From assembly GCA_965197475.1 (NCBI GenBank), contig CBDANF010000002.1, positions 1,408,001 through 1,472,000 of the forward strand: 64,000 bases of DNA, given 5' to 3'. This DNA is from Candidatus Poribacteria bacterium. Its GTDB lineage: Bacteria > Poribacteria > WGA-4E > WGA-3G. The notes under the pieces were generated by a model. That model was not told the DNA's origin. It made no database searches and saw only the letters and a program-made list of their open reading frames with translations. The position numbers and the translations under genes were made by a program. Below are positions 61,307 through 63,857 of this stretch, piece by piece. How positions within the stretch are numbered: position 1 is the first letter of the stretch; every line of letters starts with the position of its first letter.

Positions 61307-62251
61307 TTGAAATTTTTTAAAAAAGGTGAAAAAGATATAGAAAAACCTAAATCTACAACACAATCACATCCTGAACTGCAAGTAATCAGTGGTTCTGAAA
61401 TTTCTGGCACACGCGCGCAACAGCCGAATCCGCAGCAACAAGCACCGCAACAGAACATTACGTTGCCAAATATAAAGTATAAAATTGCAGTGGCGAGCGG
61501 AAAAGGAGGTGTCGGTAAGTCGACCGTTGCTACGAATTTGGCGATCTCTCTGGCGAAAGCAGGTGCCGCAGTCGGATTGATGGACGCTGATGCTTATGGA
61601 CCCAGCATACCTACAATGATGGGTGTTCAGGAGAACCCTCGCACAAGTCCAGAACGAAAACTGATTCCTCTTGTGCGACACGATATTAAACTCATGTCAA
61701 TTGGGTTTATGGTGCCTGAAGAACAAGCGATGATCTGGCGTGGACCGATGCTGCACAGTGCTATCCGTCAATTTCTGAGCGATGTGGATTGGGGTGAACT
61801 GGATTACCTCATCATTGATCTACCACCCGGCACTGGAGATGTGGCATTAACCTTAACGCAGGCGATTCCACTTACAGGTACGGTTATTGTAACGACACCA
61901 CAAGATGTCGCGTTGGCAGATGTGCGACGTGGGGTTGCTATGTTTGAACGTCTCGGCGTGCCGATTCTCGGCATTATTGAGAATATGAGCTACTTTCTCT
62001 GTCCACATTGTAATGAGAAAACAGAGATTTTCAGAGCGGATGGTGGTAAAAATACGAGCGAACGGTTCGGTGTTGCGTTTTTGGGAGAGATTCCGCTTGA
62101 CGCTGAAGTTTGCACGGCAGGGGATATTGGCGTACCGATCGTCGCAGGACATCCGGAGTCACCACAATCTGCTGCGTTCGGGGCAGTTGCTATAGAATTA
62201 GATAAAGTGTTAGCGGAGAGTAGAGAAGAGGATGAATTGACTATTCTTTAG
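61307..62251 (+). CDS. apbC: Mrp/NBP35 (ApbC) Fe-S cluster carrier ATPase
   Basis: SGKGGVGKST, DADAYGPS, WRGPM, DLPPGTGD and ENMS..CPHC motifs. Confidence 0.92.
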   Translation: MKFFKKGEKDIEKPKSTTQSHPELQVISGSEISGTRAQQPNPQQQAPQQNITLPNIKYKIAVASGKGGVGKSTVATNLAISLAKAGAAVGLMDADAYGPSIPTMMGVQENPRTSPERKLIPLVRHDIKLMSIGFMVPEEQAMIWRGPMLHSAIRQFLSDVDWGELDYLIIDLPPGTGDVALTLTQAIPLTGTVIVTTPQDVALADVRRGVAMFERLGVPILGIIENMSYFLCPHCNEKTEIFRADGGKNTSERFGVAFLGEIPLDAEVCTAGDIGVPIVAGHPESPQSAAFGAVAIELDKVLAESREEDELTIL

Positions 62252-62343: not shown

Positions 62344-62838
62344 TCAAATAGCATTTGAATCTTCGTCTATAAGTTGTATGTCCATCACATCAGCAATAAG
62401 GCGTATTGCATGCTGGAGTAGGTCTCCTCCTTTGGTGAGGTCTTGGGTCGGTATTTTTCCAAGATTGTGATTTAAATCTTCAAGTGGCGTGAGTCCGAAA
62501 TTCTCCATACCTTCAAGCATCCCCTCAAGATATCCCAGCCCTGGCATTTCCAAGTCTCGTACATCATCAAGCATTCGGTAAAACATGATGTCCTCTGTGT
62601 AGTATTTTTCATATAAGGTCGGATACCCCTCATATCTGTCAAGGGATTTCTCATCTTTTTCAGAGATTTCCCAGAGACCGCCTTTCACGGATTTGCCTTG
62701 CACAGGAGTTATATCGGCGTAGAAGCGAAAGACAAGTTGATATCCTTGCAGTGTATACGCACCGAGAGGTTGTGCGGTGGGACATCGCCACTGCATGTGC
62801 TTGATATTGAGATTTGATCCATAGGCGAAGTATTTCAT
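62344..62838 (-). CDS. Gamma-glutamylcyclotransferase family protein
   Basis: YFAYGSNL, RCP.A and LDRYEGYP..Y motifs. Confidence 0.88.
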   Translation of the reverse strand: MKYFAYGSNLNIKHMQWRCPTAQPLGAYTLQGYQLVFRFYADITPVQGKSVKGGLWEISEKDEKSLDRYEGYPTLYEKYYTEDIMFYRMLDDVRDLEMPGLGYLEGMLEGMENFGLTPLEDLNHNLGKIPTQDLTKGGDLLQHAIRLIADVMDIQLIDEDSNAI

Positions 62839-62966
62839 GGTCAGGAATTAATTTCTGAACCAGAATTAAGGGTCAAAACGGAGCAATTCGTTTTCAAAAT
62901 CAGTTATCAGTTGAGAATATTTTACATGAGATAAAATCTTTCTAACTGATAACTGATTATATGTTT

Positions 62967-63635
62967 CTAAAATAACAGAGATAAAACAGAAGATTCTTGA
63001 CGTGGATCGTCATCGTTTTTTTCAGCAGTTTTATATCCGAAAATTTCAATTTCACCTATTTCGGCAGAGGCAATGCGTTTGGTGGGACCACCTGTCCCAC
63101 TACCTGAGCCTCACGAGGAGCCGCTTGAAAGATTGCAGAGTTGTGCTGCGAGATCAACTTCGTTCCGTGTAAAAGAAGCATCGTCTGTCGTTCCTAAAAC
63201 GACAAGACGGATACGATCCGTAGGAAATGAGTATAAAATCGGAATGACAATCTTACCGGAATTGGCATTTTGTTCCTCTTTTATCAAATTCCAGTCCGTC
63301 CCTGAGATTGGACTGCCTCCTTTATCTGCATAAAGTTTAAATTTCTTGATATTATCTGAGTGAATAACGATCTTTCGGATTATCTTTTTTTCTGGTAAGG
63401 TAATGACAACTTCAGGTAGGGAATTTTTGCCTGAGAGACTATTAGCAGAATTCGTTGAACTTGTTTTACCTACGGTACTGATATCACCGTCAATCATTTG
63501 TGGGTTGGTTGCTTGAGTGCCATCAAGGAGCGTGTAGTTATCGCTCCATTCTTGTTGTGAAAGTAGGGCACTACAACCTGCCATAATTACAACAAAGCAG
63601 ACGAGTGAAATGATAAGGGCGAATCTGTAAATCAT
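62967..63635 (-). CDS. Discoidin-like lipoprotein with an in-frame TGA at 63111-63113 (candidate selenoprotein, or nonsense allele)
   Basis: Lipobox MAGC. The frame continues 47 codons past TGA through IGEIEIFG; a hairpin starts 10 nt after TGA. Confidence 0.65.
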
Positions 63636-63710
63636 TTGTAACTCCTTATTGCGCGCGAATTTAGTATGAGTATTCTTCTTCTGTGAAGATATACAGTTTT
63701 ACCTCTCCAT

Positions 63711-63857
63711 TTGTTATATACTATATATTAACAAATTTTAATATGTATGTCAAGAAAAATTGTTATATACTATATATTAACAAATTTTAATATGTATGTC
63801 AAGAAAAATTGTTATATACTATATATTAACAAATTTTAATATGTATGTCAAGAAAAA
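63711..63857 (-). repeat. Three perfect 49-bp tandem repeats, each containing a sigma70 promoter
   Basis: Unit ttgttatatactatatattaacaaattttaatatgtatgtcaagaaaaa; minus strand reads TTGACA-17-TAATAT. Confidence 0.9.

Follow-up and report, generated by a model that had tools for sequence, protein, structure and literature searches.

This locus raises the question of whether a TGA triplet at codon 175 of a lipoprotein gene ends the protein or is decoded as selenocysteine (Sec). The gene lies in a window of 64,000 nucleotides, which is the whole stretch of DNA that was analysed. It very probably belongs to a genuine new selenoprotein family, here predicted, in a Poribacteria genus of sponge symbionts, and Sec decoding at codon 175 is well supported. 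The lone hairpin of the window is just modestly above chance, and the selenoprotein case is carried by the comparative evidence. In the ORF translation, the frame around the TGA reads ...AAQLCNLSSGSS, TGA, GSGSGTGGPTKRIASAEIGEIEIFGYK..., and the presence of a lipoprotein gene with an in-frame TGA and a continuing frame, first proposed in a sequence-only reading of this DNA, was confirmed from the ATG to the TAG (Table 1). The read-through product of 222 residues can be written as ...AAQLCNLSSGSS-U-GSGSGTGGPTKRIASAEIGEIEIFGYKTAEKNDDDPRQESSVLSLLF, and the residues that flank position 175 in this predicted product are NEVDLAAQLCNLSSGSS-U-GSGSGTGGPTK. No in-frame ATG, GTG or TTG is found in the 47 codons between the TGA and the TAG.

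Table 1 Features of the Sec-lipoprotein gene and its surroundings, in window positions.
Feature	Position	Strand	Remarks
Sec-lipoprotein ORF	ATG 63635 to TAG 62969-62967	minus	222 codons with the TGA read through
Putative lipoprotein signal peptide	63573..63635	minus	residues 1-21, lipobox ...IMAG-C21
Codons 1-174	63114..63635	minus	whole protein in the public annotation
Cys166	63138..63140	minus	only Cys of the mature protein, 8 residues before Sec175
In-frame TGA	63111..63113	minus	codon 175, proposed selenocysteine codon
47 post-TGA codons	62970..63110	minus	Gly/Ser/Thr-rich loop, basic stretch, last β-strand, acidic tail
SECIS-like element	63067..63113	minus	RNAfold and comparative evidence
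Upper stem GUGGGAC/GUCCCAC	63100-63094 and 63088-63082	minus	7 bp
Apical loop AGGUG	63093-63089	minus	5 nt, begins 17 nt after the UGA
GEIEIFGY, predicted closing β-strand of the sandwich	63039..63062	minus	residues 192-199
True stop codon, TAG	62967..62969	minus	
Three perfect 49-bp tandem repeats	63711..63857	minus	upstream of the gene
γ-Glutamyl cyclotransferase-like gene (GGACT/AIG2)	62344..62838	minus	next gene, same strand
Mrp/NUBPL-type Fe-S carrier ATPase gene	61307-62251		convergent, beyond GGACT/AIG2

The read-through protein was searched, with stops read through, against 176 genomes of the Poribacteria phylum, and 150 of the 728 matches were listed. A family match occurs in all 176 genomes. 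Exactly one TGA is present in 35 copies among the 150 listed matches, comprising the 34 top-scoring matches and one more, and among the matches listed these copies are confined to the window's genus, in 30 of its 40 genomes; for the other ten genomes of the genus, no TGA copy is among the listed matches. The codon at the site is TGA in 35/35 copies and TAA or TAG in none, and the protein identity of the TGA copies across the 30 genomes is 51–77%. In the fetched DNA, all 35 copies read ...G-S/G/T-S/T/I-U... and stay open, with L039 reading ...RSL-U. Full-length paralogues at 44–56% identity, again among the matches listed, contain no TGA, and three of them contain one TAA. In many genomes, such a non-Sec paralogue often stands in tandem with the Sec gene. 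Some genomes hold two to four TGA copies: G110 (L013, L035, L036 and L037), G081 (L008 and L034) and G080 (L015 and L038). The extra copies in these three genomes have loops of the UGSMTGAGGP or UTGTTMTGTGGP type, with Met but no Cys near Sec.

A comparison of the read-through product with 5.8 billion proteins yielded 256 hits. None of these carries a family name, and two are labelled by source only, as 'hypothetical protein [Candidatus Poribacteria bacterium]'. Among the 120 database relatives listed, 66 stop at G[SGT][STI], the same point as the window's TGA, which indicates a systematic truncation of the public gene calls in this clade. A further 50 of the 120 are full length (199–248 aa) and end in ...EIE[IL][YF]GY..., and the remaining four have odd ends. 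None of these 50 full-length relatives has a Cys at the Sec site, and their whole loop is without Cys. Cys homologues aligned to Sec are the classical criterion for a selenoprotein, one that is usual but not obligatory. The alignment of homologues, which the sequence-only reading had proposed as a check for a conserved TGA or Cys at this position, returned the conserved TGA (35 copies in 30 genomes) but no Cys.

In a maximum-likelihood tree of 45 family members, all 28 Sec rows fall inside one clade of 30 (support 99/93), and the TGA may have had a single origin in the family. The other two rows of this clade are the non-Sec forms L031 and P0053, which sit on a long branch. L031 (G083:C106), the nearest non-Sec form, has a CGA (Arg) codon aligned to the TGA of L039 (G076:C61). 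The hairpin of L039 is degraded, and L039 groups in a subclade with L031 and P0053. As read from these sequences, either Sec would have been lost to Arg in this subclade or Sec would have arisen from Arg. In the L031/L039 subclade, the exchange of one base (TGA vs CGA) involves Sec and Arg instead of Sec and Cys. The idea that L031 is an orthologue that lost Sec in place was rejected, as L031 shows no synteny with the Sec gene and is a separate paralogue. A non-Cys codon at this position in a close homologue had been named beforehand as the sign of a simple nonsense mutation. The CGA in L031 corresponds to the letter of that statement, but a simple nonsense mutation is unsupported; the CGA in L031 does not refute the Sec reading, because the clade as a whole conserves the TGA, the hairpin and the frame beyond them.

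The frame downstream of the TGA remains open for 45–60 codons in 29 copies and closes with TAG or TAA. Pairwise differences by codon position amount to 1441/848/3340 in an ungapped block of 18 codons after the TGA, and the codon differences after the TGA comprise 2472 synonymous vs 1738 non-synonymous changes. Residues E195, I196, E197 and G200 are invariant in 45/45 aligned Sec and non-Sec members. Judged by its pattern of substitution, the frame downstream of the TGA is translated. Since residues 192–199 form a core strand of the predicted sandwich, a product that ended at the TGA would be without this core strand.

The mRNA after the stop reads UGA-GGCUCAGGUA-GUGGGAC-AGGUG-GUCCCAC, and RNAfold extends the hairpin by a lower stem, GAGGC/GCCUC, whose start lies within the UGA. 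Folded over 66 nt, the RNA has a free energy of −24.4 kcal/mol (z = −2.1), with 8/200 shuffles folding equally well, and the 40-nt fold of the window hairpin has z = −0.6. According to the 2026 review PMC13188914, a bacterial SECIS (bSECIS) has an upper stem of 4–16 bp, a loop of 3–9 nt with a G in the first two loop positions, a location 16–37 nt after the UGA and a minimum free energy of −7.5 kcal/mol or lower. All of these features are found in 33/35 copies (28/29 in the first set). The two copies that fail are L010, in which a competing fold is better by >2 kcal/mol, and L039. As controls from the same genome, 59/400 true TGA stops and 82/400 random in-frame coding sites fit the model. With 15–20% of control sites accepted, the bSECIS model is permissive, yet the enrichment among Sec copies is clear. 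An Rfam search at E ≤ 10 gave no SECIS and only chance snoRNA and miRNA matches.

Two types of hairpin are found among the copies. Type A has the form G(U/C)GGGAC-NGGNG-GUCCCAN and codes for GTGGP, and type B has the form GGCGGC-AGUUC-GCCGUC or GGAGG...CCUCC and codes for AAVRR or GGAVRLR. The two types share one position, and the loop starts 17–24 nt after the UGA. In type A (18 sequences), both-sided changes are observed in 3/7 pairs, 90.4% of cells pair as compared to 37–57% with the partner slid, and the covariation score is reached by 0/500 shuffles, although these covariation counts overstate independence because the copies are related. The 10 distinct rows of type B have 100% of cells paired, vs 40–70% when slid. 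A compensatory change from GGG/CCC to GAG/CUC keeps the pair, as G-C becomes A-U, and replaces Gly with Glu and Pro with Leu. That the pair is kept at the expense of both encoded residues points to selection on the RNA. For the 72 nt before the EIE motif, the mean folding energy is −21.2 kcal/mol in 34 Sec copies vs −11.5 kcal/mol in 10 non-Sec paralogues, a gap that is due in part to the higher G+C of the Sec copies. The 7-bp stem and the loop at 17 nt that had been described from the letters of the window, and likened to bacterial SECIS geometry, are thus upheld, and the hairpin is kept at SECIS distance across the copies with compensatory changes.

The genome that contains the window also has the complete set of genes for Sec insertion, which the sequence-only reading had named as a point to check. 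Profile searches identified selA (610.8 bits) and selB (a 662-aa frame, 349.8 bits), and a tRNA-Sec gene (selC, anticodon tca) adjoins selB. The fourth gene, selD (L033, at G000:C3:3099237-3100163), contains one TGA, located at the canonical ...KCAG-U-ASK... site, and so itself encodes a selenoprotein. Its hairpin has 7 bp in the stem, and the CGGGU loop of 5 nt starts at a distance of 16 nt from the UGA. This geometry is nearly that of the lipoprotein hairpin, and the selD SECIS can be taken as a same-organism positive control. In E. coli fdhF (...GCAGGUCUGC...), the loop is GGUC and starts 18 nt after the UGA. A small G-containing loop just past the UGA is therefore common to fdhF, selD and the lipoprotein gene, and fdhF and the lipoprotein gene also share a lower stem that starts within the UGA. 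The earlier remark that the loop region resembles the CAGGU of fdhF holds literally, as these letters lie within the fdhF segment given above. SelB scores above its curated cut-off in 167/176 genomes of the phylum; owing to this near universality, asking whether the Sec form is limited to genomes with SelB has no power to discriminate. A 2026 paper, PMC13582414, places Poribacteria among nine phyla with Sec-containing group 4 hydrogenases.

The predicted protein begins with a basic N-terminus, a hydrophobic helix and the sequence ...AG-C21, and the AlphaFold2 model has an N-terminal helix at residues 2–25. This region is presumably a lipoprotein signal peptide, based on a match by eye to the PROSITE rule, and both G20 and C21 are invariant in 45/45 aligned family members. 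The AlphaFold2 model, which was built on the alignment of 45 members, has a mean pLDDT of 74.1 and a pTM of 0.64. It shows the strands of a β-sandwich at residues 74–149, a helix at residues 152–169 and a last strand at residues 192–199, with a mean pLDDT of 91 for residues 191–200. Sec175 is located inside a low-confidence loop (residues 173–183, pLDDT <50), and no recognisable active site surrounds it in the model. At E ≤ 0.001, a Foldseek search against the PDB returned 171 matches. Leading these are CBM32 modules, the best match being 4a42_B (E = 3.6e-7, TM 0.74 on target), and further matches include 7blg, 2v72, APC10/Doc1, IFT25 and the muskelin discoidin domain. The fold is accordingly predicted to be a galactose-binding-domain-like β-sandwich of the CBM32/discoidin type. 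The model and these matches agree with the proposal, made from the sequence alone, that the post-TGA segment EIEIFGY is the closing strand of a discoidin-like fold. At the level of sequence profiles, no Pfam family matched the lipoprotein at E ≤ 1, and a PDB profile search gave only sub-threshold hits to neuropilin b-domains (E = 0.15).

A Cys residue usually lies close to the proposed Sec. Exactly one Cys is found between positions −8 and +6 of Sec in 26/28 copies examined; apart from it and the Sec, 24 of these 26 copies have no Cys downstream of the lipobox. Over the full set, a Cys occurs no more than 9 residues from U in 28/35 copies, and 7/35 have none. The position of this Cys varies with the subclade and is −8, −6, +1, +5 or +6 relative to Sec. 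The C-x7-U motif that had been suggested for the window consequently holds for the window (Cys166 and Sec175) and its own subclade, but not for the rest of the family. The loops that are without Cys include UGSMTGAGGP, UTGTTMTGTGGP, URKKTGSGG and UDSKTGIGG, as well as that of L004, which comes from the window's own subclade.

Several other explanations of the TGA can be weighed against Sec decoding. The UGA could be read by an ordinary tRNA (e.g. for Trp, Cys or Arg) without SelB, which would give a full-length protein without selenium and a hairpin that only stimulates read-through or causes a pause. The data show continued translation and not the identity of the inserted residue, and this explanation would also fit the lack of a Cys homologue among the 50 full-length relatives (of 120 listed) and the Arg (CGA) of the sister form L031. 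It is nonetheless considered unlikely: only TGA is used in the 35 copies, SECIS spacing and loop rules hold in 33 of these, the hairpin matches the SECIS of the genome's own selD, the Sec machinery is complete, and the single Cys that usually accompanies the site fits a Se-S pair. Conserved programmed read-through of UGA that inserts a standard residue is not known as an established route to bacterial proteins. Alternatively, the TGA could be a true stop and the 174-residue product functional, with the downstream sequence acting as an RNA element or persisting as the remnant of an ancestral C-terminus. Every public gene call stops at this point, as do 66 of the 120 listed relatives, and the hairpin is poor in one copy, L039. 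We regard this account as very unlikely, since the third-position excess downstream is the codon pattern of a translated frame, the frame is open for 45–60 codons in the 29 copies measured, and it encodes the invariant EIE..G strand common to all full-length paralogues. Moreover, one core strand of the sandwich would be missing from the 174-residue product, and the frame has no start codon after the TGA.

Two further accounts have a negligible probability. A nonsense mutation could recently have turned the gene into a pseudogene, or the TGA could stem from faulty sequencing or assembly, and the TGA is indeed one base from the CGA of a related form. However, this TGA is shared by 30 genomes at 51–77% protein identity, contigs from an independent RNA study reproduce it with 0 differences, and the gene is under purifying selection on both sides of the TGA; nonsense mutation and assembly error were ruled out on the basis of these genomes, the codon pattern and the RNA contigs. 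UGA could also be read as an amino acid throughout the lineage, as in genetic codes 4 or 25. Under table 11, selA, selB and the full-length paralogues are open and have 0 internal TGA codons, and selD has exactly one, at its known Sec site; genome-wide reassignment is excluded by these intact frames. TGA ends 555/2402 long frames of the genome, a tally that carries no weight against recoding, since the same count would be expected in a recoded genome.

For the preferred reading, Sec decoding at codon 175, the following mechanism is proposed. SelB with Sec-tRNA(Sec) would bind the hairpin, which lies inside codons 176–190, and would deliver Sec to the ribosome at the UGA. Translation would then run on through the last β-strand, which the fold needs. 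The resulting 222-residue prolipoprotein would be exported and lipidated at Cys21 and would display its CBM32/discoidin-like β-sandwich on the surface. In this arrangement, the Sec would be in a flexible Gly/Ser-rich loop just ahead of the closing strand, usually with one Cys near. The scaffold that carries the Sec loop would likely be glycan-binding. With low certainty, the selenol, either alone or as a selenenylsulfide with the nearby Cys, may be an extracytoplasmic redox centre or a metal/metalloid-binding centre.

As a tentative suggestion, which we hold to be possible but rather doubtful, the family may have been born recently, within one genus of sponge symbionts, with Sec arising in a disordered loop of a surface lipoprotein of glycan-binding type, and with none of the relatives examined here having a Cys form at this position. 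In one reading of such a birth, a one-base change between CGA (Arg) and TGA was involved, and the SECIS would have been recruited out of the Gly-rich coding sequence itself. If this recent birth took place, an exposed, lipid-anchored selenol would act outside the cytoplasm, for example in the capture of metals, metalloids or host-made electrophiles, or as a reversible Se-S tether to a partner, and Sec would be used beyond the usual thioredoxin-fold redox enzymes.

The lipoprotein differs from known selenoproteins in several respects. It is unrelated to the products of fdhF and selD, and its Sec is predicted to lie in a disordered loop of a non-enzymatic-looking scaffold with no known active site and no Cys form. 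Table 1 of PMC13188914 covers 119 prokaryotic selenoprotein families or subfamilies, and there is no entry for a discoidin/CBM32-like lipoprotein among them. The exported or lipid-anchored selenoproteins in that table include the substrate-binding lipoprotein SaoX, SaoB, DUF1573 'UGC', an FCYXU TonB-dependent receptor and DsbA/DsbG-like proteins. Like SaoX, SaoB, DUF1573 and the others, which are predicted to be extracytoplasmic and in some cases lipid-anchored (PMC13188914; bioRxiv 10.1101/2022.07.06.499078), the lipoprotein is predicted to act outside the cytoplasm, and the public records of SaoX-type selenoproteins are also commonly truncated at the UGA. In contrast to the SaoX-type proteins, the lipoprotein has another fold and lacks a constant Sec motif of the UxxC or CU kind. 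A search of NCBIfam release 20.0, which includes the curated selenoprotein models, gave at E ≤ 1 only a chance signal-peptide match (E = 0.19) and thus revealed no sequence relation to these proteins. Literature searches on bacterial and sponge-symbiont selenoproteins turned up no account of the family, which supplements of selenoproteome surveys could list.

With CBM32 and F5/8 type C modules, the lipoprotein shares the predicted sandwich, and an N-terminal motif, ...IDGDxxT, is kept in the lipoprotein family. In contrast to these modules, it inserts the helix at residues 152–169 and the Sec loop before the last strand. The non-Sec paralogues, at 44–56% identity, share the lipobox, the sandwich and the C-terminal RIsEIEIYGYK strand, but have an FGGRxGxFRR-like loop with no TGA, no Cys and no stable hairpin. 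The decoding mechanism is thus the known bacterial one, whereas the family, the fold, the location and the absence of Cys forms are new. The family adds to the selenoproteins a fold (discoidin/CBM32-like) and a location (lipid-anchored, at the surface) that are unusual for selenium, in a host from an uncultivated phylum of sponge symbionts. With its TGA and CGA forms, its two hairpin sequences and a partner Cys that moves, it also offers a natural case for the origin of a Sec codon together with its SECIS.

The stretch was found in seven public sequencing runs, four of which are sponge metatranscriptome libraries from one study. Contigs of these four libraries span the gene in full, TGA included, show 0 differences and extend over 62947-63769, 62535-63784, 62541-63740 and 62664-63747. 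These contigs show presence in RNA libraries, where DNA carry-over is possible, and are no proof of transcription or decoding; they begin within the repeat array, and their ends cannot be taken as transcript ends. Each 49-bp repeat of this array contains a sigma-70-like TTGACA-17-TAATAT sequence, with a TG in the spacer, that faces the gene, and the array therefore resembles a triplicated putative promoter. The order Sec-lipoprotein gene, GGACT/AIG2-like gene and convergent Mrp/NUBPL gene is observed in 3/3 loci examined (the window, L009 and L015). On the other side of the repeat array, a gene for a DUF1670/HTH protein of 289 aa lies divergently upstream (L002 2656-3525, just past the window's end), and this protein could be a regulator.
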